Below, piece after piece: positions 5,996 through 34,269 of a DNA stretch of 45,588 nt. A program made the position numbers and the translations under genes. The DNA is taken from the sequence record OZ035804.1, one strand, 5' to 3'. The notes under the pieces were generated by a model. That model was not told the origin of the DNA, ran no database searches, and saw only the letters and a list, made by a program, of their open reading frames with translations. This DNA is from Vectrevirus PDP21P3. Every line of letters starts with the position of its first letter. Position 1 is the first letter of the stretch.

Positions 5996-7792
5996 ATGCT
6001 TCAAAGATTAAGCACTGCCTTGGTGCGGTATAAAAGTAAAATGTCAGGTGCAATAGGTCGTATATTGCAAGAAAGACTAGAAGATACGTTAAATGCAAAA
6101 GACTTTGGTGCAAAATGTAATGGAGTGGATGATGATACAACCCCTCTCAACAATGCAGCAACAGCAGCACGCCTTAAAGGAGTCAAACTCGTAATAACAG
6201 GGTCTTGCCTAACAACTGACACAGTTAACTTTAGAGAGGTACTGCTAGAGGCATCAAGTGCTACGTTTATTATTAAACACGAGGGTGTTGGTGTTATCTT
6301 GGGTGGTAATGCAAGTGTGCACAATAACCCCAAGCAAGAGTTTGGTATGACAGAGAGACTTGTTGGGTCTGCATCTCTAGACGCTCCTGATGTACGTATA
6401 ATTGGTGCCAAGTGCCAACACATTAGCATAGAGAAGTCTGATTACCTTCAGCTATATGCAGATTCAGATGAATCAGTATATGAAAAGGACTACTCTATCG
6501 CGTATTCCACTTTTACCTTAAAGTATGTTAAAACAATCAACATACGCGGGATTAATCGTGGTTGGATTAATGAGAACCAGTTCTTCTTAAATAGAACACA
6601 TTTTGTGACAATACAAGATGGCAATTACTCTCATAACCACAATAAATTCTTTGGTGGCACTATGGAAGAGAAAGGTGCTATAGATATACAGAGAGGTCAT
6701 AATAATCACTTCTTTGGGCTTCGATTCGAAAGAGATGGCTCTAAGCCAGATAGGACACTAGACATCAAGTTTGGTTCTTATACATGGAATAATTCAATTG
6801 AAGCATCGTGGCTCAGCTCTGCTGCATATAGCAACGAACCCTATAACCCAAATAATCTTGTCACTGTTACAGATTTAGGTAGAGGTAATGCTGTACGCCA
6901 TATACAAGAAGATTTAACAGATGAGATCCCTTTGCTTTCACTAAGTGGAAAGGCAGACTACATCTCTAGTACCAACCTAGGTACTGTAAGCCAACCTGTT
7001 GTTATAACTAACTTCCCTAATATATATAATATTAGACACCTAGTATCAAGCAAGTTTTCTGTTGTAAGAAATTTCTACCCTATATGGGAGTCTGGTAATT
7101 TAGAGGTAAGGAATGGAGACTTATTCACATTCTGCTCTGATGTACCTATCTTCCGTATGCGTCTATTTATATTAGATGCGCAAGGTAATGTAATCACTGA
7201 GCAATTAGATGATGATGTATCATTCCCTGGTAGTTCTTGGAATGCACAATTAAGTATGTATACAAATACTACCAATATTGATGTTGCTAAAATACGTGTC
7301 ACTAATAGTTCTCGTATTAAATACATTCGTCTTGTCTTGATGTCTGGTGGTTCATCTCAAGATAGAATCTTTGAATATGCAAGAGTGACTGCAAGATACT
7401 ATAAGTATTCAAGCTCAACACCTCGTAAGAATATGGATGTTGCCTTAACCTCTTGCTCTGCTATGATGCCTTATAAGGGCGATGCAGAGATGCAATATAT
7501 GGGTTACGGTCTGCCTGTTGTTAAGATGGAAGATACGACTAAGAAGGTTAATATAACACGTAATAGGTATTCTGTTATTAATGTGTCTGGTTCTTCTATT
7601 AAGGTAAGGGTTTCAGGTAGTCTTATATCCGCAGATTCTAACGACTTACATCTTGTATATACAGAGGGTTCCGCTAATAAAATTATACCTATTCAGTCTT
7701 TATCGGATGATACTATTACTTTAACTTCTACTGCACCTACTACTATAGTAGCCAATAGCATGGTGGATGTAGTTTGTACAAAGCCGATGTGA
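5996..7792 (+). CDS. tailspike 2 (second receptor-binding/depolymerase-like protein)
   Basis: 598 aa, ATG 4 nt after AAAGGAGG; N-terminal DFGAKCNGVDDDT pectate-lyase-like motif; noticeably AT-rich; no phage promoter of its own. Confidence 0.7.
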   Translation: MLQRLSTALVRYKSKMSGAIGRILQERLEDTLNAKDFGAKCNGVDDDTTPLNNAATAARLKGVKLVITGSCLTTDTVNFREVLLEASSATFIIKHEGVGVILGGNASVHNNPKQEFGMTERLVGSASLDAPDVRIIGAKCQHISIEKSDYLQLYADSDESVYEKDYSIAYSTFTLKYVKTINIRGINRGWINENQFFLNRTHFVTIQDGNYSHNHNKFFGGTMEEKGAIDIQRGHNNHFFGLRFERDGSKPDRTLDIKFGSYTWNNSIEASWLSSAAYSNEPYNPNNLVTVTDLGRGNAVRHIQEDLTDEIPLLSLSGKADYISSTNLGTVSQPVVITNFPNIYNIRHLVSSKFSVVRNFYPIWESGNLEVRNGDLFTFCSDVPIFRMRLFILDAQGNVITEQLDDDVSFPGSSWNAQLSMYTNTTNIDVAKIRVTNSSRIKYIRLVLMSGGSSQDRIFEYARVTARYYKYSSSTPRKNMDVALTSCSAMMPYKGDAEMQYMGYGLPVVKMEDTTKKVNITRNRYSVINVSGSSIKVRVSGSLISADSNDLHLVYTEGSANKIIPIQSLSDDTITLTSTAPTTIVANSMVDVVCTKPM

Positions 7793-7798
7793 GGTAAT

Positions 7799-7948
7799 AT
7801 GCCTTTAATTAAATCAGTTAAGCAAAGTGCTGTACGCCAGAACACAGAAGAACTTATTCAATCAGGACGTGACCCTAAGCAAGCCTATGCGATTGCCAAG
7901 GATGTACAACGTCGTGCTATGAAGAAACCTTCTGCATCTTCTGCGTAA
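7799..7948 (+). CDS. hypothetical small basic protein
   Basis: 49 aa ORF (MPLIKSVKQSAVRQ…), GAGG 4 nt upstream; below the ORF-track length cutoff. Confidence 0.35.
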   Translation: MPLIKSVKQSAVRQNTEELIQSGRDPKQAYAIAKDVQRRAMKKPSASSA

Positions 7949-8018
7949 GCAGGTTAATATCTTAGTATAAACAAGGGCAGACTTAGGTTTGTCCTTAGTG
8001 TATTCCAAAGGAGGTAAC

Positions 8019-8147
8019 ATGCTGAAAGATGGTTGGGTTTCATATGACCCTACAGACCCTAAGAATTGGCTACAGGTTATCGCTATAGCTTGTGCAGGTA
8101 GCCTATTGGCTGCCCTGATGTATTCATTATGGATGTACACAAAGTAA
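8019..8147 (+). CDS. hypothetical small membrane protein
   Basis: 42 aa with C-terminal TM segment (VIAIACAGSLLAALMYSLWMY); strong RBS AAAGGAGG; last ORF before the non-coding terminal region. Confidence 0.4.
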   Translation: MLKDGWVSYDPTDPKNWLQVIAIACAGSLLAALMYSLWMYTK

Positions 8148-8379
8148 CCAAAGTCAAAATTTTGATGTAGGCGTGTGTCAGCTCTCTCGCCCTCGCCCTC
8201 GCCGGGTTGTCCCCATAGGGTGGCCTGAGGGAATCCGTCGAGGACGGGCAGGGCTGATGTACTCCTTGTACTAGCTTAGTAGTACACAAGGGCAGGCCGT
8301 ACTAGTTAGCTGGTACAGCCTAGTCTTTGCTCATGTACTAGCAAGGTGGAACGCTGGAGAACGCCTAGGACGGCCTAGG

Positions 8380-8890
8380 GATGGCTTAGTGGTGGACAAG
8401 GTGATTACCTTAGTGAAGCCTCTTAGTGCATTCCTGAGGCTATTCAGGACCATTCCTGAGCGTTTGACAGGGTGGGCGTGGGTGGGCTATCTGTTCGTTT
8501 GCTCGCTATCGCTCGCTGCACGCCTGTCGTGTACCTTAGGTTATTCCTTGATGGATAGCTTAGGTTAGCCTTAGTGGACTACCTTAGTTAAAGCCTTAGT
8601 GCTTAGCTTAGTATCAGCTTAGTAGTGTACCTTAGTAAGACTTAGTGTCTTCTCTTAGTGATTGCACATGCAAGCATGTAAGATGCCATTAGGTCGCGGT
8701 CGGTAGACCGCTAAAGAAAGAGAATAGTAATAAGATGCAGTAGGAGGAACACCAGAATCCTAGCCGACCTAGCCTATCCTGGCTCTGTATCTATTGCTTT
8801 TCCTTAGTCTCACATGTTAGACAACCTAGGTTTACCTTAGTAGTTGTGACATGTATCACATAAATAATCTATCTTAGTGAAATTTAGTGT
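8380..8890. repeat. array of short CTTAGT(G)/CCTTAGT direct repeats in non-coding region (likely genome-terminus region)
   Basis: about 20 irregularly spaced copies of cttagt read by eye, plus GC-rich mini-repeats just upstream (ctcgccctcgccctcgcc, gtgggcgtgggtgggc); T7-type genomes carry short repeat arrays next to their terminal repeats. Confidence 0.5.
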
Positions 8891-10076: not shown

Positions 10077-10409
10077 ATGAAACGTGATGCAAACGCTTAT
10101 TATGAACTTCTGGCTGCAACTGTTGAAGCATTCAACGAGCGCATTAAATACGATGGTATCCGTGAAGGTGATGATTATTCTGATGCACTTCATGAGGTTG
10201 TAGGCGGCAATGTGCCGCACTATTATCATGAAATCTTTACTGTGATGGCTGCAGATGGCATTGATATCGAATTCGACGATGCTGGCTTGATTCCTGACAC
10301 TAAGGACGTAACCAAGATTCTACAGGCTCGCATTTATGAGGCGCTTTATAATGATGTGCCAAATAATAGCAGTGTAGTTTGGTATGAAGACGAAGAAGAG
10401 GAAGAATAA
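10077..10409 (+). CDS. ocr: Ocr-like anti-restriction DNA mimic (T7 gp0.3 homolog)
   Basis: ERIKYDGIREGDDYSDALHEVVGGNVPHYYHEIFTVMAADGIDIEFDDAGLIPDTKDVTKILQARIYE aligns closely with T7 Ocr as remembered; acidic poly-Glu C-terminus. Confidence 0.85.
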   Translation: MKRDANAYYELLAATVEAFNERIKYDGIREGDDYSDALHEVVGGNVPHYYHEIFTVMAADGIDIEFDDAGLIPDTKDVTKILQARIYEALYNDVPNNSSVVWYEDEEEEE

Positions 10410-11552: not shown

Positions 11553-14180
11553 ATGCAGGACTTATACGCTATCCAGCTTCAGCTTGAAGAAGAGATGTTT
11601 AATGGTGGTATCCGTCGCTTTGAAGCAGACCAACAACGCCAGATTGCATCCGGTAATGAATCCGACACGGCATGGAATCGCCGCTTATTGTCTGAGTTAA
11701 TCGCACCGATGGCGGAAGGTATTCAGGCTTATAAGGAAGAGTATGAAGGCAAGCGCGGTCGTGCACCGCGTGCATTGGCTTTCATTAACTGCGTAGAAAA
11801 TGAAGTGGCAGCGTATATCACGATGAAAATCGTAATGGATATGCTTAATAATGATGTGACTTTGCAGGCTATAGCCATGAATGTAGCTGACCGCATAGAA
11901 GACCAAGTGCGCTTCAGCAAGCTGGAAGGACACGCCGCCAAATACTTTGAGAAAGTTAAGAAGTCACTTAAGGCAAGTAAGACTAAATCATATCGCCACG
12001 CGCACAACGTAGCGGTAGTGGCTGAGAAGTCAGTGGCCGACCGTGACGCAGACTTCTCCCGCTGGGAAGCGTGGCCTAAGGATACCTTGCTACAAATCGG
12101 GATGACCTTGCTCGAAATACTGGAGAATAGCGTATTCTTCAACGGGCAGCCTGTTTTCCTCCGCACCTTGCGCACTAACGGCGGCAAGCATGGCGTTTAC
12201 TACTTACAGACTAGCGAACACGTGGGTGAATGGATAACTGCATTTAAAGAGCACGTAGCGCAATTAAGTCCTGCCTATGCGCCTTGCGTTATTCCTCCTC
12301 GTCCGTGGGTTTCTCCGTTTAATGGTGGCTTCCATACCGAGAAGGTGGCGAGTCGTATTCGTCTGGTTAAAGGAAACCGCGAGCACGTCCGCAAGCTGAC
12401 CAAAAAGCAAATGCCAGCGGTTTACAAGGCTGTTAACGCTTTGCAGGCGACTAAGTGGCAGGTTAATAAAGAGGTTTTGCAGGTAGTAGAGGACGTTATC
12501 CGTCTCGACCTTGGTTATGGTGTGCCTTCCTTTAAACCACTCATCGACCGTGAGAACAAGCCAGCTAATCCAGTGCCGTTAGAGTTCCAGCACCTGCGAG
12601 GCCGTGAACTTAAAGAGATGCTAACGCCGGAACAATGGCAAGCCTTCATCAACTGGAAAGGCGAATGTACCAAGCTGTATACCGCTGAAACTAAGCGCGG
12701 CAGCAAGTCGGCGGCAACCGTTCGCATGGTCGGGCAGGCCCGTAAATACAGTCAGTTTGACGCAATATACTTCGTGTATGCACTGGATAGCCGTTCACGC
12801 GTTTATGCGCAATCTAGCACGCTCTCGCCGCAATCAAACGACCTAGGCAAGGCGTTACTGCGTTTCACCGAAGGGCAGCCTCTAAATAGCTCTGAGGCGC
12901 TTAAGTGGTTTTTGGTGAACGGTGCTAATAACTGGGGTTGGGATAAGAAAACTTTCGACGTCCGCACCGCTAACGTGTTAGATGGTGAATTCCAAGACAT
13001 GTGCCGCGATATTGCAGCCGACCCGCTGACTTTTACTCAATGGGTGAATGCTGACTCCCCTTATGGCTTCCTTGCATGGTGCTTTGAATATGCGCGTTAT
13101 CTGGATGCACTGGATGAAGGCACGCAAGACCAATTCATGACGCACCTACCCGTCCATCAAGACGGTAGTTGCTCTGGTATCCAGCACTATAGCGCGATGT
13201 TACGCGATGAAGTAGGTGCGAAAGCAGTAAACCTTAAGCCTTCTGACTCCCCTCAAGATATTTATGGCGCGGTTGCGCAGGTTGTTATCCAGAAGAATTA
13301 CGCTTACATGAATGCAGATGATGCAGAGACGTTCACATCTGGAAGCGTCACACTTACAGGTGCAGAACTGCGTAGCATGGCTAGCGCATGGGATATGATA
13401 GGTATCACTCGCGGATTAACCAAAAAGCCGGTAATGACCTTGCCGTATGGCTCTACCCGCTTAACATGCCGTGAGTCAGTGATTGATTATATTGTTGATT
13501 TGGAAGAAAAAGAGGCACAAAGGGCTATTGCAGAAGGGCGGACGGCTAATCCGGTGCACCCTTTTGATAATGACCGTAAAGATTATTTAACACCGGGCGC
13601 AGCTTATAACTACATGACCGCGTTAATTTGGCCTTCTATCTCTGAGGTTGTTAAAGCACCTATAGTGGCGATGAAAATGATTCGCCAACTCGCACGATTC
13701 GCAGCTAAAAGAAACGAAGGGTTAGAATATCCCTTGCCTACTGGCTTTATCTTGCAACAAAAGATAATGGCTACCGACATGCTACGCGTATCCACTTGCT
13801 TGATGGGTGAAATCAAGATGAGTCTACAGATTGAGACTGATGTAGTGGATGAAACGGCAATGATGGGCGCTGCCGCTCCCAACTTTGTTCACGGGCATGA
13901 TGCTAGTCATCTCATCCTGACTGTATGTGACCTCGTTGATAAGGGCATTACATCCATCGCAGTCATCCATGATTCCTTTGGTACTCATGCAGGCCGTACA
14001 GCAGACCTGCGGGATAGCTTAAGGGCAGAAATGGTGAAGATGTATCAAGGTCGTAATGCCCTGCAAAGCCTGTTAGATGAGCATGAAGAACGCTGGTTAG
14101 TAGACACCGGAATCCAAGTGCCAGAGCAAGGAGAATTTGACCTTAACGAAATCTTAGTATCTGACTATTGCTTCGCATAA
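11553..14180 (+). CDS. single-subunit DNA-directed RNA polymerase (T7/SP6 type)
   Basis: 875 aa (SP6 RNAP is ~874); motifs [18 protein letters not shown]-terminal …CFA; RBS GGGAG. Confidence 0.95.
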
Positions 14181-14636: not shown

Positions 14637-14855
14637 ATGGCTAAATATAGAATTAAGACGTGTTTAAATAGTCACGGACAAGAGCAATACATAGTACAAC
14701 GTAAAGTATTAGGTTTAATATGGGTCACGTGTATGGTGCCTATTGGTTATACTGATACAGAGGCTATATTCTGCACCGAAAGGGATGCAAAGAAGTTTAT
14801 CTCGAAGCGCAGAAAAGCTGACTCTTATCAACACAGAATTATTAAGGTGAATTAA
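14637..14855 (+). CDS. hypothetical protein
   Basis: 72 aa; stop overlaps primase/helicase ATG (TAATG). Confidence 0.45.
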   Translation: MAKYRIKTCLNSHGQEQYIVQRKVLGLIWVTCMVPIGYTDTEAIFCTERDAKKFISKRRKADSYQHRIIKVN

Positions 14856-16843
14856 TGGCGATAATCAATAACATCCAATGCCCCGCTTGCGCTAAGAACG
14901 GGCATGATAAGTCCTCTAATCATCTTATGATATTTGATGATGGTGCTGGCTACTGTAACCGTGGTCATTTCCATGATAACGGCAAACCTTACTACCATAA
15001 GCCGGAAGGTGGCATCGAGATAACCGAGTTGCCAATTACTGGCAATATCAAATATACACCTTCTCAATTCAAAGAAATGGAGAAGGAAGGGAAGTTAAGC
15101 GACCCTAAGCTACGCGCCATCGCACTTGGTGGTATGCGTATGAAAGACCGTTGGGAGGTCATGAATGAGCAAGAAAGGGCAGACCAAGAAGCAGAGTGGA
15201 AACTTGATGTTGAATGGTTCCTCACGCTTAAGCGTAAGAACCTTGTTTCCCGACACATTCGCGGCGACATTTGCGCATTGTATGATGTACGTGTCGGACA
15301 CGATGAAGAGGGTAGAGTCTCACGGCATTACTATCCACGCTTCGAAGGTGGAGAGTTAGTAGGTGCTAAGTGTCGTACCTTACCTAAAGATTTTAAGTTT
15401 GGTCACTTAGGTAAGCTCTTTGGTATCCAAGATCTTTTCGGTATGAATACTTTGTCTCACGTGTTAGACAAGGGAAGACGAAAGGATTGCTTACTTATTG
15501 TAGGCGGTGAACTTGATGCACTAGCAGCCCAGCAAATGCTCCTTGATTCTGCCAAAGGTACTAAGTGGGAGGGGCAACCTTATCATGTATGGTCTGTTAA
15601 CAAAGGTGAGTCTTGCCTTGAAGAGATAGTACAGAACCGAGAGCATATCGCCCAATTCAAGAAGATTATTTGGGGCTTTGATGGGGATGAGGTAGGACAG
15701 AAGCAGAACCAACAAGCGGCTCGCCTGTTTCCCGGCAAATCCTACATCCTTGAATACCCTTCTGGTTGCAAAGATGCCAACAAGGCATTGATGGCTGGTA
15801 AAGCCAAAGAATTTGTGGATGCTTGGTTTAATGCAAAGTCATCTGATGAAGTCTTTGGTAGCCAGATTAAATCTATCGCATCTCAAAGAGATAAGCTCAA
15901 GGCTGCACGTCCAGAACAAGGGCTGTCATGGCCTTGGCCTAAGCTAAACAAGGTAACGCTGGGTATCCGTAAGAATCAGCTTATCATTGTAGGTGCAGGC
16001 TCTGGTGTGGGTAAGACTGAGTTTCTCCGTGAAGTAGTTAAGCATCTCATTGAAGAACACGGTGAATCTGTAGGCATCATTTCTACAGAAGACCCGATGG
16101 TCAAAGTGTCCCGTGCTTTTATCGGCAAATGGATTGATAAGCGTATTGAGTTACCACCAACCAACGACCCGAAAGAAGATGGATACCGTGAGGTGTTCGA
16201 CTATACCGAGGAAGAAGCTAACGCCGCCATTGATTATGTAGCCGATACAGGGAAGCTGTTTGTAGCTGACCTAGAAGGTGACTACTCGATGGAGAAGGTA
16301 GAGCAGACCTGCCTTGAGTTTGAGGCTATGGGTATTTCCAATATCATCATTGATAACTTAACGGGGATTAAATTAGATGAGCGTGCTTTTGGTGGGAAGG
16401 TTGGTGCACTTGATGAATGCGTCAAGCGGATTGGTACTATCAAAGACCGACACCCAGTTACTATATTCCTTGTATCACACCTTACACGTCCTCCGGCAAA
16501 CCGTACCCAACACGAAGAAGGTGGCGAGGTTATCCTTTCTGACTTCCGAGGCTCAGGAGCTATCGGATTCTGGGCATCTTACGCCTTGGGGATTGAGCGT
16601 AACACAAGAGCTGAAACGCTTGATGAAAGAACTACCACGTACATTTCATGTGTCAAAGACCGCGACCAAGGAATATTTTCCGGTACTCGTATAATGCTTA
16701 AAGGCGATATTGCTACGGGTCGCTTACGTGAACCAGAGCAAAGATCTCGACCGTTTGATACTGGTGCTCCAAAAGAACAAACTGTACCAGAAGAAGTGGT
16801 TGATAAAGGAGGTTTTATTGCTGACGAAGTTGAAGAGTTTTGA
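14855..16843 (+). CDS. DNA primase/helicase (T7 gp4-like)
   Basis: N-terminal Cys4 zinc ribbon CPACAKNGH…YCNRGH; Walker A GAGSGVGKTEF; Walker B-like IIIDNL; acidic C-terminus ending EEF. Confidence 0.9.
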   Translation: MAIINNIQCPACAKNGHDKSSNHLMIFDDGAGYCNRGHFHDNGKPYYHKPEGGIEITELPITGNIKYTPSQFKEMEKEGKLSDPKLRAIALGGMRMKDRWEVMNEQERADQEAEWKLDVEWFLTLKRKNLVSRHIRGDICALYDVRVGHDEEGRVSRHYYPRFEGGELVGAKCRTLPKDFKFGHLGKLFGIQDLFGMNTLSHVLDKGRRKDCLLIVGGELDALAAQQMLLDSAKGTKWEGQPYHVWSVNKGESCLEEIVQNREHIAQFKKIIWGFDGDEVGQKQNQQAARLFPGKSYILEYPSGCKDANKALMAGKAKEFVDAWFNAKSSDEVFGSQIKSIASQRDKLKAARPEQGLSWPWPKLNKVTLGIRKNQLIIVGAGSGVGKTEFLREVVKHLIEEHGESVGIISTEDPMVKVSRAFIGKWIDKRIELPPTNDPKEDGYREVFDYTEEEANAAIDYVADTGKLFVADLEGDYSMEKVEQTCLEFEAMGISNIIIDNLTGIKLDERAFGGKVGALDECVKRIGTIKDRHPVTIFLVSHLTRPPANRTQHEEGGEVILSDFRGSGAIGFWASYALGIERNTRAETLDERTTTYISCVKDRDQGIFSGTRIMLKGDIATGRLREPEQRSRPFDTGAPKEQTVPEEVVDKGGFIADEVEEF

Positions 16844-17306
16844 GGCCGCAGGTTATACCATCAAGGAAGATGGTACTATCCTTAACCCTAAAGGTGTAAT
16901 ACGCAAGCCCACGTCTTTAGGAAAGAAAGTAAAGTATTTATATGTAACTTGGAAACATCAAGGTCGAACAGTAACAGAACTTGTACACCGACTGGTTGCT
17001 TGTAAGTACATACCCAACCCACATGGTTTACCAGAAGTTCATCATAAAGACTTTAATCCTCTTAATTGTCATAAAGATAATCTTGAATGGACAGATGGGA
17101 AAACCAATTGTGAGTACAGCTATTCACGAGTAGAGACTGCACTTGCACGAAAGGCTACTTTGCTGTCACCTGATGGAATTAAACATGATGTGTTTAATGT
17201 TCGTAAGTTCTGCCGTGAACATAGCCTCAATCCACCTAGCATATTTGAAGTGCTTAGTGGTAAGCGTAAATCACACAAAGGATGGACTATTTACCGGACA
17301 CTATAG
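16818..17306 (+). CDS. HNH homing endonuclease
   Basis: HRLVACKYIPNPHGLPEVHHKDFNPLNCHKDNLEW = HNH motif; probable TTG start 5 nt after AAGGAGG (track ORF 16710 extends upstream into helicase in another frame); stop lies inside the 17289 promoter. Confidence 0.65.
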   Translation: MLTKLKSFEAAGYTIKEDGTILNPKGVIRKPTSLGKKVKYLYVTWKHQGRTVTELVHRLVACKYIPNPHGLPEVHHKDFNPLNCHKDNLEWTDGKTNCEYSYSRVETALARKATLLSPDGIKHDVFNVRKFCREHSLNPPSIFEVLSGKRKSHKGWTIYRTL

Positions 17307-18764: not shown

Positions 18765-18885
18765 TTTCATCATATTGATTGGAGGTGCATTATGCCACGT
18801 GATTATGATTCTGATTGGGACTACTTTGACTCAATGAATCCAAAACCCGAACGTTCAGATGATTACTACGAAACAGAGGCAATGT

Positions 18886-21396
18886 ATGAAAACTATTGAT
18901 TGGAAGAAGGAAGCAGAAGGGCGAATCCTAGTGATGGATGCGGAAGCTAAAGGTCTGCTTGATGCTATCCGCTATGGTCATCGTGAAGATGTACACATCA
19001 TTTGCTGCATGGATTTGCTTACTACAGAGGAGTTCTTATTCTTTGACCCATATGAGATGCGTGACCCTGAAGCAAGAGAACACCTGAAGGAATGGGAAGG
19101 ACATCAAGATGGAACCTTGGTTGACGGTGTTAACTTCCTGAAGCATTGTGAAGCTATTGTGTCACAGAACTTCCTAGGGTATGACGGCCTTCTCTTTGAG
19201 AAAGCATTCCCTGATATTTGGAAAGGCTTTAACTATACCGAGAAGCGCGGCAAGGGCAGACTCCGTGCTGACCTGTGTCCTATCCGTGTTGTCGACACAC
19301 TGGTAATGAGTCGCCTGTTAAACCCCGACAGACGTCTTCCTCCGCAAGCTTATGCCAAGGGCATGGGTAACGTTGCCCCTCATTCAATTGAGGCGCACGG
19401 CATCCGTATAGGCCGCTATAAGCCGGAGAATGAGGACTGGTCTAAGCTAACTGACCACATGGTTCATCGTGTACGTGAGGACGTGGCGATTGGTCGTGAC
19501 CTGTTCCTGTGGTTGTACAATGGGGAATGGATGGAGCACAAACGCCGTGGCGTGAACAAACGCACTGGCCTAGGTATTGAGACAGCCTTCCACATGGAAT
19601 CCATTGTGGCGCTGGAGATGAGCCGTCAGGCCGAACGCGGATTCCGTCTGGATATCGACAAGGCCTTAGCTCGATGCGAAGAACTGGACGCCAAGATTGA
19701 TGAGACAGTCGCAGCGTTCCGTCCGCATATGCCTATGCGTATCAAGTCTAAACCTTTTAAACCGGAAGAGAAGAATGAAACCTGCCAAAAAGCAAATGAG
19801 TATGGACGAAGCAACAACATCAACGTGGTTCTCGACCCCTCACACTTTCTACATGCAGAACGCCGTGGAGATAGGAAAACTGTTTGGGCTGTCACCACTA
19901 AGTCTGGTGACTGGAGTGCTTCTGTCAAGAAAGATTTCCCTCACCTTAGAGGAAACCGTAATGATACGCCAAGCATCAAGTGGATTGGCGCTTATAGTCC
20001 AGTCACGTTTGAAGAGATTCCCTTGGGAAACCGTGACACCGTTAAGCAAGTGCTCTACGACTATGGCTGGAAAGGTGTGGAGTTCAACGACACCGAGCAA
20101 GCCTATCTTGATGAAAATGGTGTCCTACCTAAGCCTTGGAGTGGTAAGATAAATGAAAAGTCCCTTACTTTATGGCAGGAAAGAGCCGCACGTGAAGGTA
20201 AAACAGTCCCTGATTGGTGCTTGGGTATCGCTGCATGGTACATACTCGTATCCCGTCGTGGTCAGATCCTCAACCGTGGTGACGTTGAAGCCTTCAACGA
20301 GAAAGGAACGTGGCCCTCGCAGGCTGGTGTACGAAAGTGTCGTGGCCTTGTACCTGTAGCCTTTAACAAGGAGCTAGGAATCAATGCGCAGCAATACTAC
20401 GAAAGGTATGGATGTTGGCCTACGTCTGACAAAGATGATGGAGAGTGGCGTGTGCCAGGCAATGCTGTTACTATTGGTACTAATACGTTTCGTATGCGTC
20501 ATCGTAACATTGTTAATATTCCTTCCCGTGGGTTGTATCCTCTACGTGATTTATTCATAGCTAGCAAAGGTAAAATGATACTCGGATGTGATGGCGCGGG
20601 TCTTGAGCTTCGCATCTTAGCCCATTTCATGGGTGATCCTGAGTATATTGATATTGTCTTGAATGGCGATATTCACTCACACAACCAAGCGAAGGCTGGA
20701 TTGCCCTTACGTGACACTGCGAAAACATTTATCTACGCTTTTCTCTACGGGTCTGGCATACCAAACCTTGCCGCTGTATGTGGCATGACTGAAGCACAGA
20801 TGAAAGAGTGTGTCGCTCGCTTTGAAGTAGAGCTACCTCACTTAGCTAAGCTTAAGGAGGGAGTGGAATCTGCTGCTTCACAATTTGGGTACATGCACGC
20901 TGTAGATGGGCGCTGGGGTCGTGTACGTGTTAGTAATGGTGAGATTAAGATTCACACCTGTCTTAATGTACTCCTCCAGATGACCGGTTCTCTCACTATG
21001 AAGTACTCAAAAGTGAAAGCACTAGCTACCATGCGTAAAGAGGGCGTGGCTCTTGATGCTAATGGTAATCCTGCTATGCTTGTCGACTATCACGATGAGT
21101 GGCAGATGGAGGTGCCTGAAGACGAAGTGTTAGAAATTCGCTACTCTATTCCTTCCTCTGAATGGAAAGAAGAAGAGAAAAGGCAGTATCGAGACTCAGA
21201 AGGACGTATGTGGTCTGCACCTAAGATTGTGGAAGGCAACCCTAAAGAGGATGAGGAGATCACTGTACGTCGTCGTTATCATCGTGCTGGTGAGATCCTA
21301 GCTGAATCTATTACATGGGCTGGAGAATATCTCAAGTTACGCATTCGAATGGATGGGGAATATATGCTTGGGTATTCATGGGCTGAAACACACTGA
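18886..21396 (+). CDS. DNA polymerase (family A, T7 gp5-like)
   Basis: ATG after GAGG (track start 18859 is upstream of first ATG); motifs DGAGLELR and RDTAKTFIYAFLYGSG match T7 DNAP motifs A/B as remembered. Confidence 0.9.
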   Translation: MKTIDWKKEAEGRILVMDAEAKGLLDAIRYGHREDVHIICCMDLLTTEEFLFFDPYEMRDPEAREHLKEWEGHQDGTLVDGVNFLKHCEAIVSQNFLGYDGLLFEKAFPDIWKGFNYTEKRGKGRLRADLCPIRVVDTLVMSRLLNPDRRLPPQAYAKGMGNVAPHSIEAHGIRIGRYKPENEDWSKLTDHMVHRVREDVAIGRDLFLWLYNGEWMEHKRRGVNKRTGLGIETAFHMESIVALEMSRQAERGFRLDIDKALARCEELDAKIDETVAAFRPHMPMRIKSKPFKPEEKNETCQKANEYGRSNNINVVLDPSHFLHAERRGDRKTVWAVTTKSGDWSASVKKDFPHLRGNRNDTPSIKWIGAYSPVTFEEIPLGNRDTVKQVLYDYGWKGVEFNDTEQAYLDENGVLPKPWSGKINEKSLTLWQERAAREGKTVPDWCLGIAAWYILVSRRGQILNRGDVEAFNEKGTWPSQAGVRKCRGLVPVAFNKELGINAQQYYERYGCWPTSDKDDGEWRVPGNAVTIGTNTFRMRHRNIVNIPSRGLYPLRDLFIASKGKMILGCDGAGLELRILAHFMGDPEYIDIVLNGDIHSHNQAKAGLPLRDTAKTFIYAFLYGSGIPNLAAVCGMTEAQMKECVARFEVELPHLAKLKEGVESAASQFGYMHAVDGRWGRVRVSNGEIKIHTCLNVLLQMTGSLTMKYSKVKALATMRKEGVALDANGNPAMLVDYHDEWQMEVPEDEVLEIRYSIPSSEWKEEEKRQYRDSEGRMWSAPKIVEGNPKEDEEITVRRRYHRAGEILAESITWAGEYLKLRIRMDGEYMLGYSWAETH

Positions 21397-21455: not shown

Positions 21456-22013
21456 ATGAATGAACTGAACACTAAGATGCTCAAGAAAGTTTATAATCTT
21501 GTATATAGTATCACGGGTCTACAATTCTACCCTGTAGGCGGTGCGGTTCGTGACACCCTGTACGGAGTAACACCTAAAGACTATGATATGGTGTTGCCTG
21601 TAGGGTCTATGGCAGATTTTCAGGCGCACGAAATCATGGAAAATATCTCTGAAGAGATGGCAATTATGGGATTTAGTACCAAACTCTACCAATCATACGG
21701 TATCAATTTAGGTTATGAAATCAACCCTACCTCTTTTCAGGCTATGTTCCTTAGCTGCATGAAAGTGCAGATGCGTAATTGCCAACTTGATTTGCTTCTT
21801 TCTAAGTCTGAAACCATCCAAGATCATGTACGTAAGCACGATTGCAATATGAATATGGTGTGGTTCGATGGTAAAGATATCAAGTGGGAGCACGGCGGTG
21901 TTACTCCTTTCGTTCCTGTGTTAGAGTTCAACCCTGACGTATGTGATCGTCGCATTGCTTACATGGACAAGAAGCGCCATGAACTTATCCGTCACAAATT
22001 AATGCATCTTTGA
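21456..22013 (+). CDS. minimal nucleotidyltransferase, CCA-adding enzyme/poly(A) polymerase head-domain-like
   Basis: FYPVGGAVRDTLYGVTPKDYDMV matches the GGxVRD…D-x-D signature of the tRNA nucleotidyltransferase/poly(A) polymerase family; only ~185 aa; ATG 7 nt after GGAGG. Confidence 0.6.
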   Translation: MNELNTKMLKKVYNLVYSITGLQFYPVGGAVRDTLYGVTPKDYDMVLPVGSMADFQAHEIMENISEEMAIMGFSTKLYQSYGINLGYEINPTSFQAMFLSCMKVQMRNCQLDLLLSKSETIQDHVRKHDCNMNMVWFDGKDIKWEHGGVTPFVPVLEFNPDVCDRRIAYMDKKRHELIRHKLMHL

Positions 22014-22099: not shown

Positions 22100-22477
22100 A
22101 TGTCTATGGTAACTACTCTGGTATTCGTGGCTCAATACTTTCGTGGTCTGGCTAATAAGTTCAAGTCCAAGGCTATCAAAGCTATTGAGTCTCGCATCGA
22201 GGCAGTACAGGCAGAGCAAGTTAAAGTTGAAGAACATCGTAGTTCTCAAATGATTGACTGCCATAACCGCTACTATGCATCTCGTGATGACCTTAATGCA
22301 CGCCAAGTCAAAGAGGTTGAAGAGATGCTGGCACGTCACCAGCAAGAGCGCGACAGTCTGAAAGCTGAATTTGAAGAGAACAAGGCATCCATCGCCCTTG
22401 TACATCAAGCCGCATCTGACAGCCTGAAGAAAGAGATTGTTATGCTGGAAATTGAGTTAGACAACCTGACCAAATAA
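22100..22477 (+). CDS. hypothetical coiled-coil protein
   Basis: 125 aa, charged heptad-like sequence. Confidence 0.5.
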   Translation: MSMVTTLVFVAQYFRGLANKFKSKAIKAIESRIEAVQAEQVKVEEHRSSQMIDCHNRYYASRDDLNARQVKEVEEMLARHQQERDSLKAEFEENKASIALVHQAASDSLKKEIVMLEIELDNLTK

Positions 22478-22498
22478 TTACTGGACACTATAGAACAA
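22476..22498 (+). promoter_or_regulatory. phage RNAP promoter
   Basis: aaTTACTGGACACTATAGAACAA; +1 G at 22493, followed by hairpin and the shared TGATTGTGTAGTG leader motif. Confidence 0.65.
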
Positions 22499-22554: not shown

Positions 22555-23361
22555 ATGGCACGTGGTGATTTTGATTTTGGTGCTCAGGTTACTAAAGCTG
22601 AAGGTAAGGTTTTTAAGAACCCTGAAGTTGGTGATCATGAAGCAGTAATCTCTGGCATCATTCATGTGGGTTCCTTCCAAGATATCTTTAAGAAAGGTAA
22701 TACCACTGAAGTTAAGAAGCCAGCAAACTTTGTTCTTGTTAAGATTGTACTGATGGGTGACGATGACAAGAACGAAGATGATTCTCGCATGGAACAATGG
22801 ATGGCTGTGCCTCTGAAGTCTGGTGATAAGGCAACACTAACTAAGTTCCTGAATGCAGTTGACCCTAAAGAATTGCTGGGTGGCTTCGATGATTTTATCG
22901 GTGAATGTCTGACTGCAACTATGGTTGGCTCTGGCGACAAGAATGATGATGGTACTTTCAAGTATGTTAACTGGAAAGGCTTTGGTGGTATGCCGGATAA
23001 GCTGAAGAAACTTGTCATTGCTCAGGTTGAAGAAGAGGGTCTGTCTATGACAGGTCATATTACCTTCGACAAGCTGACCAAAGAAATCCTTGATGATATT
23101 CCTGCTAACTTGGTGCGTCAATACTTCCTGAACGAGACGCCTCGTGGCAAGAACCTGTCTGTTGCTGGCTCTCACGTAGAAGCAATCATCAAAGCTGCTC
23201 GTGAAGAAGACCCAGAGTGGAAGAAAGCTAAGAAGAAAGATGAAGAGGATGCCACTCCAGCTAATCGTAGATCTCTGGATACCGGCGAGTCTGTTCCACA
23301 GGAAGTACCTGAAGCGGAGGACAACCCTGCACCTGAAATGGATGAAGACGCGGAATACTAA
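22555..23361 (+). CDS. putative ssDNA-binding protein (gp2.5-like) with acidic C-terminal tail
   Basis: 268 aa; C-terminus …EAEDNPAPEMDEDAEY (acidic tail with terminal aromatic residue, as in T7 gp2.5); functional assignment is inference. Confidence 0.5.
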   Translation: MARGDFDFGAQVTKAEGKVFKNPEVGDHEAVISGIIHVGSFQDIFKKGNTTEVKKPANFVLVKIVLMGDDDKNEDDSRMEQWMAVPLKSGDKATLTKFLNAVDPKELLGGFDDFIGECLTATMVGSGDKNDDGTFKYVNWKGFGGMPDKLKKLVIAQVEEEGLSMTGHITFDKLTKEILDDIPANLVRQYFLNETPRGKNLSVAGSHVEAIIKAAREEDPEWKKAKKKDEEDATPANRRSLDTGESVPQEVPEAEDNPAPEMDEDAEY

Positions 23362-23370
23362 GGAGGGCGG

Positions 23371-23589
23371 ATGAAAGTACAAATTGTAACTCTGCATTGC
23401 AAGAAAGGCATCACCACGCTTGGCGGTGGCACTTTCCACTCCTTCTCCGAAGGAGATACATACTCTGACCTGCACTACATCTGGCGCGATGGGCAGCACG
23501 TGGTGAACTACAGCGACCCAGCTACGGGGAAACGCCACGGCGTATCGCTTCCGGCGCATGACATTGCTCAGGTGAACACAGTTTTATAA
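23371..23589 (+). CDS. hypothetical protein
   Basis: 72 aa, RBS AAGGAGGG. Confidence 0.45.
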   Translation: MKVQIVTLHCKKGITTLGGGTFHSFSEGDTYSDLHYIWRDGQHVVNYSDPATGKRHGVSLPAHDIAQVNTVL

Positions 23590-23590
23590 A

Positions 23591-23606
23591 GTCTCACGTG
23601 TGAGAC
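23591..23606 (+). repeat. conserved palindrome copy e
   Basis: GTCTCACGTGTGAGAC. Confidence 0.8.
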
Positions 23607-23621
23607 AAATCGGTGTCCGGT

Positions 23622-23644
23622 ATTTACTGGACACTATAGAAGAG
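23622..23644 (+). promoter_or_regulatory. phage RNAP promoter (consensus copy)
   Basis: ATTTACTGGACACTATAGAAGAG; +1 G at 23639. Confidence 0.7.
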
Positions 23645-23694
23645 AAGAATTTTAATCGGCGATAATGCCATAACCAACAAAAGGAGAATTTAAT

Positions 23695-24066
23695 ATGTTC
23701 AAGATTGAAACTATCGTAAACCGTGTTGTTAAAGGTGCTGCTCTGGTATCCGTTGAGTCTTTCATTATCGTCGATGAAGCTGATCAACTGGTAGCTGGTA
23801 CTAAAGCTTACGATACCCGTGAAGAAGCTCAGGCTAAGATTGACAGCATGGGTAACTTCGCTGCTGGTCTGGAGTTCGCTCGTGCTTGCTTCCCTGAGCA
23901 GGCTGACAAAGCACAGATTGGTAAGGCTAATATCGTAGCTGAATATCTGGATTGGGTTGCTGCTGGTAAACCAGTGAAAGAAGTTAAGGCTGCTGAAGAA
24001 GCTGAAGCTCCAGCAGAAGAAGTAGCTGCACCGGAAACTCCGGTAAGCGAAGAGGAAGAATTTTGA
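23695..24066 (+). CDS. probably highly expressed small protein with acidic C-terminal tail ending in Phe
   Basis: 123 aa; strong RBS AAAAGGAGA; codon choice (GGT, CGT, GCT, CTG, AAA) resembles the capsid gene; own promoter upstream and Tphi-like terminator downstream; C-terminus …APETPVSEEEEF. Confidence 0.7.
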   Translation: MFKIETIVNRVVKGAALVSVESFIIVDEADQLVAGTKAYDTREEAQAKIDSMGNFAAGLEFARACFPEQADKAQIGKANIVAEYLDWVAAGKPVKEVKAAEEAEAPAEEVAAPETPVSEEEEF

Positions 24067-24123
24067 TAATAGCAGGTGTTGCCTCTGTTAGTCCTGGTTG
24101 ACTATCACGCTCACCTCATCTAA

Positions 24124-24158
24124 TGCCCTGTCTGCCTTAGTGTAGGCAGGGTCTTTTG
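24124..24158 (+). terminator. phage Tphi-like terminator hairpin
   Basis: GC-rich hairpin (CTGCC…GGCAG/CCCTG…CAGGG) followed by TCTTTTG; sequence-similar to the element after the capsid gene. Confidence 0.5.
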
Positions 24159-24471: not shown

Positions 24472-24842
24472 GTCAGCCAGCACTTGCTTGCTTAAAACCA
24501 GATGGCTACTACCAAAGTACCGTCATGGGTAAGAAGCTGTACGCTCACCGCGTAGTGTTCTTCTTGACGCATGGGTACTGGCCTGTCAATGTGGATCACC
24601 TCGATGGTAATCGTCAGAACAACAAGCCGTATAACCTAGCAGATGTGGATGCAGCAGAGAATGCAGAGAATCGTATGCACTTCGGTTGCTATCTGACTAA
24701 GCAAGGTTGGCGTGTTCGTATCCAAGTTAAAGGTATTAGGAGAGATATTGGCACTTACCCTACCAAGGAAGAGGCCATATCTGCCTATACCAAGGCAAAG
24801 CTAGAACTTCACCACTCTCCACGTTATAAGGAGGTGGTATGA
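24372..24842 (+). CDS. HNH endonuclease with AP2-like DNA-binding domain
   Basis: HRVVFFLTHGYWPVNVDHLDGNRQNN (HNH motif) plus GWRVRIQVKGIRRDIGTYPTKEEAISAY (AP2-type); ATG 5 nt after AAGGAG. Confidence 0.7.
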   Translation: MQLEEYLRTTLAVDEESPSGLVWKVRAARRVRVGQPALACLKPDGYYQSTVMGKKLYAHRVVFFLTHGYWPVNVDHLDGNRQNNKPYNLADVDAAENAENRMHFGCYLTKQGWRVRIQVKGIRRDIGTYPTKEEAISAYTKAKLELHHSPRYKEVV

Positions 24843-25867
24843 GTAGGCCTTTATTTAACTTTGGTGCAGAAGTTTCTGAAGATAACAACCTGATAGTGTG
24901 GCCAACTGAAGGTAATAGAATCGCTTTAATAGATGCTGATATGCTACCTTATATTGTAGGGTACACAATCAGTGACATGACTTATGTACGAGCCACAACT
25001 CGTGTTAAGTCAGGACAAGTCCCATCAATCAAAGATACACCTGAGTGTAAGCAAGCATGTGACCGTGTGAACTCCTTGCTTAACTCTTGGGTGTATGCAG
25101 CAGAGTGCGATGCAGCTAAGTTATTCATGACGAAATCAGAAGCTAACTTCCGTGTTCGCCTAGCATTCACCAAGCCTTACAAAGGTCAACGTAAGACTGA
25201 GAAGCCTCCATTCTTCTATGAATTGCGAGAGCATCTCTTAGAGGTTCATGGTGCAATCTTGGCAGATGGAGAAGAAGCGGATGACCTCATGAGCATCACA
25301 CAATGGGATAGCCACCGCCGCTTCCAGCAAGATACAGGTAACGAGTTCCCTATCGGTAGTCCAGAGCATAAAGCATTCTCTGACACTTGCATCGTTTCCT
25401 TGGATAAGGATTTGATGATTGTTCCCGGTTGGCATCTACAGCCGGGAGGTGAGAAGAAATGGGTAGAGCCTATGGGTTGGCTTGAGCTACGCCGCAAGGC
25501 TAATGGTCAAGTGAAAGACCTTAAAGGTGCTGGCCTCATGTTCCATTATGCACAGATGATTATCGGTGATGATATTGATAATTACGCTGGCATACCCGGA
25601 CGTGGTGCTAAATACGCCTATGATCTTCTCAAAGATTGTAAGACAGAGAAAGAGTTGTACATGGCAGTGCTTGGTGCATATAAGGCTAAGTTCGGACATG
25701 GACAAGTTAAGATTAAGAATTACCGAGGTGGTTATCGTATCGGCAAGGCTTTTGACCTGATGCTTGAATGTGGTCGCCTAGCACACATGGCAAGATTCAA
25801 GGGTGATATATGGCGAGCCGATAAGAACCCAATCTTGTGGGGAGATGACGATGGATGGATGCATTGA
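24839..25867 (+). CDS. 5'-3' exonuclease (T7 gp6-like)
   Basis: EEADDLMSITQW, VSLDKDLMIVPG and IGDDIDNYAGIPGRG correspond to T7 gp6 motifs as remembered. Confidence 0.85.
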   Translation: MSRPLFNFGAEVSEDNNLIVWPTEGNRIALIDADMLPYIVGYTISDMTYVRATTRVKSGQVPSIKDTPECKQACDRVNSLLNSWVYAAECDAAKLFMTKSEANFRVRLAFTKPYKGQRKTEKPPFFYELREHLLEVHGAILADGEEADDLMSITQWDSHRRFQQDTGNEFPIGSPEHKAFSDTCIVSLDKDLMIVPGWHLQPGGEKKWVEPMGWLELRRKANGQVKDLKGAGLMFHYAQMIIGDDIDNYAGIPGRGAKYAYDLLKDCKTEKELYMAVLGAYKAKFGHGQVKIKNYRGGYRIGKAFDLMLECGRLAHMARFKGDIWRADKNPILWGDDDGWMH

Positions 25868-29466: not shown

Positions 29467-29664
29467 ATGTCTTTTGATTCTATGAAGGCAACTCGTGCTG
29501 TTGAGGTAGCAGAGGCCATCTTCGAAACTCTATCCTGTGGCATGGAAGTGCCATATACTTTACTGGCTGATGCAGAAGAACTTGGTCTTTCTGTAGAAGC
29601 TATCCAAGAGAAGGTTGAGGAATTATATGGCACAGACGAAGAAGAAACCGACGATTTCATTTGA
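29467..29664 (+). CDS. hypothetical acidic protein
   Basis: 65 aa, ATG after AAAGGAGG (track start 29407 is upstream). Confidence 0.4.
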   Translation: MSFDSMKATRAVEVAEAIFETLSCGMEVPYTLLADAEELGLSVEAIQEKVEELYGTDEEETDDFI

Positions 29665-33022: not shown

Positions 33023-34228
33023 ATGTCTACGCCGAATAACCTGACCAACGTTGCAGTCTCCGCTTCCGGTGAGGTAGACAGCCTGCTCATTGAGAAATTC
33101 AATGGTAAGGTAAATGAGCAGTACCTGAAAGGTGAGAACATCATGTCCTACTTTGATGTTCAGACTGTTACTGGTACTAACACTGTAAGCAACAAATACT
33201 TGGGTGAAACCGAGTTGCAGGTTCTGGCGCCGGGTCAGTCTCCGGCTGCAACCTCCACTCAGGCAGATAAAAACCAGTTGGTAATTGATGCCACCGTTAT
33301 CGCTCGTAACACTGTTGCTCACCTACATGACGTACAGGGTGACATTGATAGCCTGAAGCCTAAGCTGGCAACCAACCAAGCTAAGCAACTGAAGCGTATG
33401 GAAGATGAAATGCTGATTCAGCAGATGCTGCTGGGCGGTATTGCTAACACTCAGGCTAAGCGTACCAATCCGCGTGTGAAAGGTCATGGCTTCTCTGTTA
33501 ACGTCGAAGTAAACGAAGGTGAAGCACTGGTTAACCCACAGTATGTAATGGCGGCGGTAGAGTTCGCTCTGGAACAGCAGCTTGAGCAGGAAGTTGACAT
33601 CTCCGATGTAGCCATCCTGATGCCGTGGCGCTATTTCAACGTACTGCGTGATGCGGATCGTATCGTTGACAAGAGCTACACCATTAGCCAGTCTGGTGCA
33701 ACCATTCATGGCTTCGTACTGTCTTCCTACAACTGTCCAGTTATCCCATCTAACCGATTCCCGAAATTTGCTCAAGGTCAGAAGCATCACCTGTTGTCTA
33801 ACGAAGACAACGGCTACCGCTATGACCCTGTTGCAGAAATGAACGGCGCGATTGCTGTACTGTTCACTGCCGATGCACTGTTGGTGGGACGCTCCATTGA
33901 TGTTACTGGCGATATCTTCTATGAGAAGAAAGAGAAGACCTACTACATCGACACCTTTATGTCTGAGGGTGCAATCCCTGATCGTTGGGAAGCAGTTTCT
34001 GTTGTGACCACTAAGCGTAATGTCACCACTGGTGCTGCTGACAGTACCGCTGCTGCACAGCATACTCAGGTTCTGAACCGTGCACAGCGCAAAGCTGTAT
34101 ACGTCAAGAATGCTGCTCCGGCAGGTGATGCCGCTGCTGCTACTCTTTCTGCTGAAGACTTGGTTGCTGCTGTCCGTGCTGTAATGGCAAATGACATTAA
34201 GCCGACTGCAATGAAACCTACTGAGTAA
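33023..34228 (+). CDS. major capsid protein
   Basis: 401 aa; own promoter, strong RBS AAGGAGG, highly biased codon usage, followed by terminator. Confidence 0.85.
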   Translation: MSTPNNLTNVAVSASGEVDSLLIEKFNGKVNEQYLKGENIMSYFDVQTVTGTNTVSNKYLGETELQVLAPGQSPAATSTQADKNQLVIDATVIARNTVAHLHDVQGDIDSLKPKLATNQAKQLKRMEDEMLIQQMLLGGIANTQAKRTNPRVKGHGFSVNVEVNEGEALVNPQYVMAAVEFALEQQLEQEVDISDVAILMPWRYFNVLRDADRIVDKSYTISQSGATIHGFVLSSYNCPVIPSNRFPKFAQGQKHHLLSNEDNGYRYDPVAEMNGAIAVLFTADALLVGRSIDVTGDIFYEKKEKTYYIDTFMSEGAIPDRWEAVSVVTTKRNVTTGAADSTAAAQHTQVLNRAQRKAVYVKNAAPAGDAAAATLSAEDLVAAVRAVMANDIKPTAMKPTE

Positions 34229-34234
34229 TACCTA

Positions 34235-34269
34235 TGCCCTATCTACCCTGCGTAGGTAGGGTTCTTTTT
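34235..34269 (+). terminator. phage Tphi-like terminator after capsid gene
   Basis: GC-rich hairpin (CTACC…GGTAG) followed by TTCTTTTTG. Confidence 0.55.

Follow-up and report, generated by a model that had tools for sequence, protein, structure and literature searches.

Why should three proteins of one phage replication module end in the same kind of acidic, aromatic-capped tail, and what might those tails bind? The question is raised by the genome of Vectrevirus PDP21P3 (sequence record OZ035804.1), a circularly permuted record of 45,588 nucleotides (nt) from the K1E/K1-5/SP6 group, all of which was analysed (the window). The tails are those of the primase/helicase (…FIADEVEEF), of a protein of 268 amino acids (aa) (…PEMDEDAEY) and of a protein of 123 aa (…PVSEEEEF). 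The 268-aa protein is gp16 of K1E and K1-5 and gp18 of SP6, and the 123-aa protein is gp18 of K1E and gp20 of SP6; they are called gp16 and gp18 here. The T7 replisome, the textbook minimal replisome, is coordinated by two acidic Phe-terminated tails that dock on the polymerase, and our analysis suggests a third, abundant tail-bearing protein as an addition to this T7-type scheme. The reading that we prefer, and to which we give about an even chance, is that gp16 is an SSB (a protein that binds single-stranded DNA, ssDNA), that gp18 is not, that the three tips are one shared docking motif, and that gp18 is a third, abundant ligand.

Three tails of one motif class

All three tails reported in a first-pass annotation of this DNA were confirmed. 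Under a strict rule (last residue F, Y or W; at least three D or E in the preceding six; no K or R in the last seven), exactly three of the 45 proteins qualify, namely, the primase/helicase, gp16 and gp18. The same pattern occurs in 0.22% of internal 7-mers, from which 0.10 hits would be expected (binomial P ~1.4e-4). A looser rule, which accepts the aromatic residue anywhere within the final three positions, was applied to the early and middle proteins of T7 and picks only gp2.5 (…EDGDF) and gp4 (…NDTDF). T7 therefore has two such tails and the SP6/K1E clade three, the extra bearer being gp18. The sequences support placing the tails of the primase/helicase, gp16 and gp18 in one conserved motif class, like those of T7 gp4 (…DTDF) and gp2.5 (…DGDF). 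When the gp16 and gp18 families were compared with hhalign, the probability was at most 0.5% and the alignment covered the final 10 residues only, which indicates that unrelated cores carry the shared tip as a short linear motif and rules out gp18 as a truncated SSB paralogue.

The tips are conserved across the Molineuxvirinae and Colwellvirinae. Full-length relatives of gp16, down to ~32% identity, have an aromatic residue within the last four positions in 97 of 97 cases; in 94 of 97, three or more of the final eight residues are acidic, and a hydrophobic M or L usually lies seven residues upstream. Close relatives of gp18 end in S(E/A)EEEF or a one-residue variant (120/120 among the matches listed), and those at 24-60% identity mostly in (E/D)-x-F/Y; the Ala/Glu/Pro linker that precedes the tip is hypervariable in length and sequence while the tip is kept. 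Remote short forms of this family (78-100 aa), encoded at the same map position in distant lineages, are for the most part acidic and Phe-ended (…APADEDF, …SEEAETF). Primase/helicase homologues from 28 distinct lineages have a C-terminal acidic run followed by F or Y, with the consensus (D/E)-x-(E/Q)-E-F/Y and a hydrophobic residue ~7 positions upstream. Toprim and DnaB_C domains and an acidic, Phe-ended C terminus that matches the tip of the cognate SSB are shared with T7 gp4 (…SNDTDF), from which the primase/helicase differs in this tail consensus and in the non-conservation of the polymerase basic patch considered below. Loss of the tails among homologs had been named in the first-pass annotation as the finding that would speak against a shared role; the tails are conserved and also co-vary, and the claim survives.

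Co-variation was assessed in 51 loci (six annotated Molineuxvirinae/Colwellvirinae genomes, 44 IMG/VR loci and this genome), which were gathered with the gp16 alignment and in which the three orthologues per locus were located by hidden Markov models. The loci yield 38 distinct tail triples, with all three tails present in 28. In one lineage (L032-34; gp16 58% identical) all three tips are Tyr-terminal (…EESEY, …EGAEY and …EAEEY), a state found independently in Aeromonas phage MJG (…EGASY, …EEATY and …EDAAY). A Pseudomonas group (L048 and L050) has one or two residues past the aromatic in all three proteins (…TFD, …VFE and …AFEG), and in phage Achelous (L003) extra residues are found past the aromatic only in gp16 and gp18, the helicase being Tyr-terminal. 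The terminal state is identical in helicase and gp18 in 25 of the 28 triples; for the helicase and gp16 tails the figure is 15 of 28. At least three separate, concerted changes of the tip are not easily accounted for unless a common receptor co-evolved with them.

The end of the helicase gene provides what, judged from its sequence, is a natural experiment on tail retention. Compared with K1-5-type genomes, an HNH endonuclease open reading frame (16710-17306; weak Pfam HNH_3 match) lies within an insert of ~550 bp (~16736-17288) that overlaps or replaces the 3' end of the helicase gene. The last ~15 codons are changed by it (…VVDKGGFIADEVEEF in place of …DTIEETNFDEESEF), and the rewritten C terminus is nonetheless acidic and Phe-ended (…DEVEEF).

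In SP6 itself (L004), the primase/helicase (6472-8457) ends …ENTQEFNG, two residues past the Phe. The helicases of its close relatives L018 and L019 end …DNTQEF, and the SSB and gp20 tips of SP6 carry no extension.

Two further acidic C termini of this genome were weighed as possible additions to the three and set aside. In the exonuclease (…GDDDGWMH), the position of the Trp at the end is not conserved. The very acidic 65-aa protein encoded after the ligase gene (29467-29664; phrog_5860, function unknown) has the end …EEETDDFI (…ELYGTDEEETDDFI), and its relatives conserve an ELYG motif and the acidic end and not the near-terminal aromatic. An Ocr-like anti-restriction protein (10077-10409; phrog_2568) also has an acidic end, …YEDEEEEE, with no terminal aromatic.

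The two smaller proteins and their genes

The main features discussed here are the following, in coordinates of the window.

14855-16843, + strand: primase/helicase gene, T7 gp4 analogue (Pfam DnaB_C 1.8e-14, Toprim_2); product ends …GGFIADEVEEF
18859-21396, + strand: family A DNA polymerase gene (Pfam DNA_pol_A 1.5e-21), candidate tail receptor by analogy with T7 only
22476-22496, + strand: promoter for the phage RNA polymerase ahead of the gp16 gene, two mismatches to the consensus
22555-23361, + strand: gene for gp16 (268 aa), probable phage SSB; OB-fold core ~26-144, helical subdomain 148-230, disordered acidic tail
23245-23358, + strand: disordered acidic tail of gp16 (residues ~231-268); predicted local distance difference test (pLDDT) score <60, net charge ~-10, tip M-D-E-D-A-E-Y
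23371-23589, + strand: gene for gp17 (72 aa); phrog_5791, function unknown, present in most related loci
23591-23606, + strand: palindrome GTCTCACGTGTGAGAC, immediately upstream of the next promoter, one of eight copies in the genome
23622-23642, + strand: perfect-consensus phage promoter ATTTACTGGACACTATAGAAG, dedicated to the gp18 gene, no mismatches
23681-23686, + strand: Shine-Dalgarno sequence AAGGAG, 8 nt before the ATG
23695-24066, + strand: gene for gp18 (123 aa); beta-hairpin 3-26, three helices 42-89, Ala/Glu/Pro-rich disordered linker, tip V-S-E-E-E-E-F
23980-24063, + strand: disordered linker and acidic-Phe tip of gp18 (residues 96-123), net charge -10
24125-24158, + strand: intrinsic terminator closing the transcription units that start at 22476 and 23622; 11-bp stem, 6-nt loop, then CTTTTG

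The genes for gp16 and gp18 have near-identical distributions (215 and 212 phage records, respectively, with matching genus counts) and conserved synteny. Both are labelled 'hypothetical protein' in nearly all of the ~215 records that carry them; the exceptional labels are 'HNH homing endonuclease' for the gp16 gene and 'unknown function' for the gp18 gene, in one record each. Both proteins fall in PHROGs with unknown function, and an SSB is annotated in 0 of ~215 SP6/K1E-group genomes. A literature search found no function assigned to gp16 or gp18 and no remark on the triple tail, with an early remark on an acidic-tailed candidate SSB in the SP6 and K1-5/SP6 genome papers possible. A full-text search found nothing relevant on an SP6-group SSB, on gp16/gp18/gp20 function, or on a transcriptome or proteome.

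The AlphaFold2 model of gp16, built on a 42-sequence alignment, has a mean pLDDT of 79.5, and values over most of the core are close to 90 or higher. Its topology is that of an OB fold (beta1-3, helix, beta4-5), with strands at 26-66 and 80-86, a helix at 94-102 and strands at 118-144, followed by a helical subdomain (148-230) and a disordered, acidic, aromatic-ended tail (residues ~231-268, net charge -10). The best match among solved structures is PrgE, a DNA-binding OB protein. A Foldseek search of predicted viral structures gave 77 matches at E<=1e-3, comprising unannotated proteins of LUZ24-like phages, of Xp10 and of other phages, among them podophages of Ralstonia, Acinetobacter, Shewanella and Colwellia, as well as DUF669 proteins. 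DUF669 was linked to the SSB of phage N4 by Kazlauskas et al. (PMC4889955), and DUF669 proteins are acidic-tailed proposed SSBs of viruses without known SSBs (PMC4889955). The DUF669 neighbours of the model come from BFVD, and the present phage likewise has no known SSB. From the group formed by PrgE (pCF10), DUF669 and N4 SSB, the gp16 family differs in that none of 42 members has a Pfam DUF669 match, in that the N4 SSB profile scores 0.2%, and in that the N4 SSB tail is basic (…SLFGKK), unlike the acidic tail of gp16. Such fold neighbours, present in LUZ24-like phages, in several podophage groups and in Xp10, hint at an SSB superfamily that is large, poorly annotated and still to be named.

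Sequence searches assigned gp16 to no functional family. Pfam has none for gp16 at E<=0.1 or for the 42 members at E<=1, and Pfam, NCBIfam and PHROG scans of gp16, gp18 and all alignment members were equally negative, the sole near-match for gp16 being the sub-threshold NCBIfam model 'rep_init_NGO0469' (19 bits against a cut-off of 75). The Pfam/NCBIfam bacterial SSB model matches neither protein, and a PDB sequence-profile search with the gp16 alignment returned nothing. Compared by hhalign, the gp16 family has no detectable homology with T7 gp2.5 (probability 0.08%) and reaches probabilities of 0.5% with N4 SSB alone and 0.2% with a 13-sequence N4 SSB alignment. SSB annotation was found on no other protein among the replication-module proteins scanned, nor in the re-annotated SP6 RefSeq record; gp16 is the one SSB candidate that this genome offers.

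The resemblance of gp16 to T7 gp2.5 is one of organisation. Each is a monomer-size OB-fold protein (268 and 232 aa, respectively) with its own phage promoter (at 22476 for gp16), a long, disordered, acidic, aromatic-ended tail (…EMDEDAEY and …EADEDGDF) and a gene in the replication module of an Autographiviridae genome. They differ in having no detectable sequence relationship, in the extra helical subdomain of gp16, and in the gp16 tip, which is usually Tyr-terminal in Vectrevirus and Zindervirus. By capsid-referenced codon adaptation, the gp16 gene ranks 3rd, 3rd, 4th and 8th in four divergent genomes. We infer ssDNA binding by gp16 and consider it to be probably the SSB of this clade, a role assigned here with moderate confidence.

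The second protein, gp18, is built differently. Its AlphaFold2 model (26 diverse sequences; mean pLDDT 82, core ~90) shows a beta-hairpin (3-26) and three helices (42-89), the tail being disordered from ~residue 95, and comparison with the PDB by fold and by sequence profile gave no meaningful match. The core is acidic (net -3, pI 4.9), and the tail adds -10. An OB fold, proposed in the first-pass annotation as a check on both proteins, is thus predicted for gp16 and not for gp18, which has neither this fold nor a basic or aromatic DNA-binding surface. That gp18 is the true SSB, as was also suggested there and as its apparent abundance, its gp2.5-like acidic Phe-ended tail and its place in the replication module might favour, is very improbable given the confident hairpin and three-helix core, the acidity of that core and a same-tailed OB-fold protein encoded 330 bp upstream. 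Conserved core positions (K37, A45, G58, K77-A78-N79, A82, W87 and G91) imply a function of the N-domain beyond carrying the tail.

The gp18 gene carries every sequence hallmark of very high expression, and three of the four signals attributed to it at first pass stand. First, its promoter is its own and matches the consensus exactly (23622-23642). The 21-nt phage promoter consensus occurs ten times in the genome at <=3 mismatches, and exact copies (21/21) only three times, before the gp18 gene (23622), the tailspike gene (3901) and the capsid gene (32952). Second, in a comparison of codon adaptation across genes, gp18 ranks first of 45, above the capsid gene, both by fraction of E. coli optimal codons (0.79) and by capsid-referenced adaptation (0.86), and 1st or 2nd place also goes to its orthologue in each of SP6, Vibrio phage phi-A318 and Pseudomonas phage Achelous. 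Third, the gene is followed by a terminator, an 11-bp GC-rich hairpin (24125-24152) and CUUUUG (112-nt fold, -38 kcal/mol; z = -3.1), that is a near twin of the capsid-gene terminator (34236-34262, region to 34270), and a GC-rich hairpin with a U-run lies 3' of the orthologue in seven genomes, including SP6, Era103, phi-A318, Achelous, CB5A and MJG. The fourth signal, a very strong ribosome-binding site, was overstated: AAGGAG at 8-nt spacing is good and unexceptional here, since many genes of this genome have an equal or better Shine-Dalgarno sequence. Taken together, these signals point to gp18 being made in capsid-like amounts, apparently as the most strongly expressed non-structural protein. 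Transcripts from 22476 also stop at the 24125-24158 terminator, which makes genes 16, 17 and 18 one nested unit.

The two terminators have near-identical designs, GCCCTGTCTGCC…GGCAGGGT CTTTTG after the gp18 gene and GCCCTATCTACC…GGTAGGGT TCTTTTTG after the capsid gene.

A proposed receptor of the shared tip

The T7 polymerase interacts with the acidic tails of both gp2.5 and gp4, and a basic patch anchors that of gp2.5 (PMC12339929, PMC10359462); PDB entry 6P7E contains a DTDF peptide that mimics the gp4 tail (PMC12339929). This analogy, together with the concerted changes of the tips, leads us to propose one shared, phage-encoded receptor site. We envisage the following. (i) The segment 22476-24158 would be a nested, terminator-closed unit of the replication module, consisting of promoter, gp16, gp17, consensus promoter, gp18 and terminator. 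(ii) gp16 would be the phage SSB, a functional analogue of T7 gp2.5 on an unrelated and unannotated OB-fold family with a helical subdomain, and its ~40-residue disordered acidic tail would present the tip hydrophobic-D-x-x-x-E-Y/F. (iii) gp18 would be a small acidic alpha/beta domain that carries the same tip on a flexible Ala/Glu/Pro linker. (iv) The tips of the helicase-primase, the SSB and gp18 would act as one short linear docking motif that requires a C-terminal aromatic and binds a single site encoded by the phage; the DNA polymerase is the likeliest bearer of this site if T7 is a guide, with the SSB groove as second candidate. (v) gp18 would enter the tail-docking network of the replisome as a third, abundant ligand, whether as adaptor or as competitor, and preferably serve as adaptor or modulator, either coupling a partner of its N-domain to the polymerase or tuning the exchange of helicase, SSB and polymerase by mass action. 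The conserved surface of the N-domain itself (K37, K77-A78-N79, W87 and G91) favours an adaptor or modulator and makes an inert decoy less likely.

Several observations weigh against this proposal. First, the docking site of T7 does not transfer to this polymerase, which shares 32% identity with T7 gp5 in the palm and fingers (pairwise BLASTP): the front basic patch is not conserved (K587, K589 and R590 lie opposite a gap, and the residue paired with R591 is Gly), and the thioredoxin-binding region of gp5 does not align. Conserved K/R clusters elsewhere in the polymerase are candidate sites. Second, the tail is altered or absent in remote lineages and so is not indispensable. One remote gp18-like protein lacks it (L039, 2373-2609), another ends …EEEEGDEE with no aromatic (L044, 9827-10090), and a third has seven residues past DEEF (L041, 10034-10336); a further locus (L042) has no gp18-like gene, its SSB-like gene being directly followed by the exonuclease gene. 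The remote forms that differ at the end indicate that the gp18 tail is an accessory coupling device, not the whole function. Third, a ligand of the same site that exceeds helicase and SSB could block replication unless it were of low affinity or regulated. Finally, the permutation P-values for co-variation ignore phylogeny and are only indicative, and the abundance of gp18 is read from sequence signals only.

The main rival to the polymerase as receptor is the DNA-binding groove of the gp16 SSB, with gp18 as an abundant SSB chaperone or regulator. The tail of T7 gp2.5 reportedly competes with ssDNA for the same binding surface. By analogy, the gp18 tip would fill the gp16 groove in trans, keep the SSB off double-stranded DNA and RNA, and control its loading and release. 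Genes 16 and 18 share one terminator-closed unit and near-identical distributions, gp18 seems to be more abundant than the SSB, which would fit a stoichiometric partner, and acidic tails stabilise dimers of T7 gp2.5 (PMC10359462). However, gp18 would be redundant in part with the tail that the SSB itself carries, and the closest co-variation of the helicase tail is with that of gp18 (25/28), not with that of the SSB (15/28). On balance this account is unlikely, though it is the best placed of the alternatives.

Distinctly less probable is a role of gp18 directed at the host, in which gp18, present in large excess, would use its acidic-Phe tip to imitate the C-terminal end of bacterial SSB (…DDDIPF), a partner hub motif, and titrate either SSB-interacting proteins (nucleases, helicases and restart proteins) or a defence sensor, for takeover or as an anti-defence decoy. 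The architecture of gp18 is that of bacterial SSB, a folded domain with a disordered linker and an acidic Phe tip used as docking peptide; gp18 is a small, acidic and apparently very abundant protein whose tail ends in a Phe with a free carboxylate, and the genome encodes other small, acidic, host-directed proteins, such as the Ocr-like one. Exchange of its tail for that of E. coli SSB is reported to be tolerated by T7 gp2.5, so the two motif classes can cross-react. Unlike bacterial SSB, however, gp18 is without an OB domain and without the I-P-F signature in its tip, and this tip changes in step with those of the phage helicase and SSB (F to Y, added residues), whereas the SSB tip of the hosts is not known to vary much among these Gammaproteobacteria. 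A tip that tracks the other phage tips, while the host motif stays as it is, suggests a co-evolving phage partner and makes mimicry of host SSB less likely.

We assign the same low probability to the view that the tails have no shared partner and are generic acidic, disordered ends that serve solubility, auto-inhibition or charge balance and bear an aromatic by chance. The abundant gp18 would then have an unrelated role, such as modulation of nucleoid or transcription like T7 gp5.5. Acidic C termini are common in this genome (the Ocr-like protein, …EDEEEEE; the 65-aa protein, …EEETDDFI), the tip is missing in some remote relatives, and gp18 sits before the exonuclease gene, at the position of the abundant gp5.5/5.7/5.9 cluster of T7. 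Like gp18, gp5.5 is small, apparently highly expressed and encoded in the polymerase-exonuclease interval. gp5.5 nevertheless ends …VREVF with no acidic tail, gp18 has its own consensus promoter and terminator, and the gp18 family has no sequence similarity to gp5.5 (hhalign probability 0.1%). The specificity of the tips, their conservation and their co-variation further contradict a view without a shared partner: the strict motif is found only in these three proteins (P ~1e-4), the terminal aromatic is kept at 24-40% identity where linkers diverge freely, the tips change together in separate lineages, and for the 65-aa protein the aromatic end of the acidic tail is not conserved.

Phages in wide use for therapy and biotechnology belong to the SP6/K1E group, and a third protein with a co-evolving tip is now described for it. 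If gp18 does bind the polymerase or the SSB groove, it would represent a regulatory layer absent from T7 and offer a simple peptide handle with which to dissect or inhibit replication in this clade. The boldest form of our proposal goes further: gp18 would be a new class of replisome component, small, abundant and non-DNA-binding, linked to the replisome by the docking tip only, and would either govern the exchange of polymerase, helicase and SSB by mass action or tether the polymerase to some target of the conserved N-domain. The tail network of the SP6/Colwellvirinae replisome would then have three ligands instead of two, and gp16 would found a new family of podophage OB-fold SSBs, widespread and so far unannotated. 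This version is tentative, and we rate it at appreciably less than an even chance.

Neighbouring genes and repeated elements

Other genes to which the text refers lie as follows.

11553-14180: RNA polymerase gene
24839-25867: exonuclease gene
33023-34228: capsid gene

The gp17 gene, sandwiched by the two tail-bearing genes and co-transcribed with the putative SSB gene, is kept across most of the clade; its product is ~91 aa in the Colwellvirinae. Just upstream of the gp16 gene, a 125-aa protein (22100-22477) bears in PHROGs and RefSeq the label 'polysaccharide chain length determinant protein', which may be an annotation artefact; the protein has a coiled-coil look. Its gene has a near-consensus promoter at 22013 and high codon adaptation.

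The 16-nt palindrome GTCTCAC(A/G)TGTGAGAC is present in eight copies (0 expected), at 8807, 14254, 14436, 15454, 17520, 18745, 23591 and 41113. The copies are mostly intergenic, at least two of them (14254 and 23591) lie just upstream of a phage promoter, and their role might be that of pause sites or of hairpins for RNase III-type processing.

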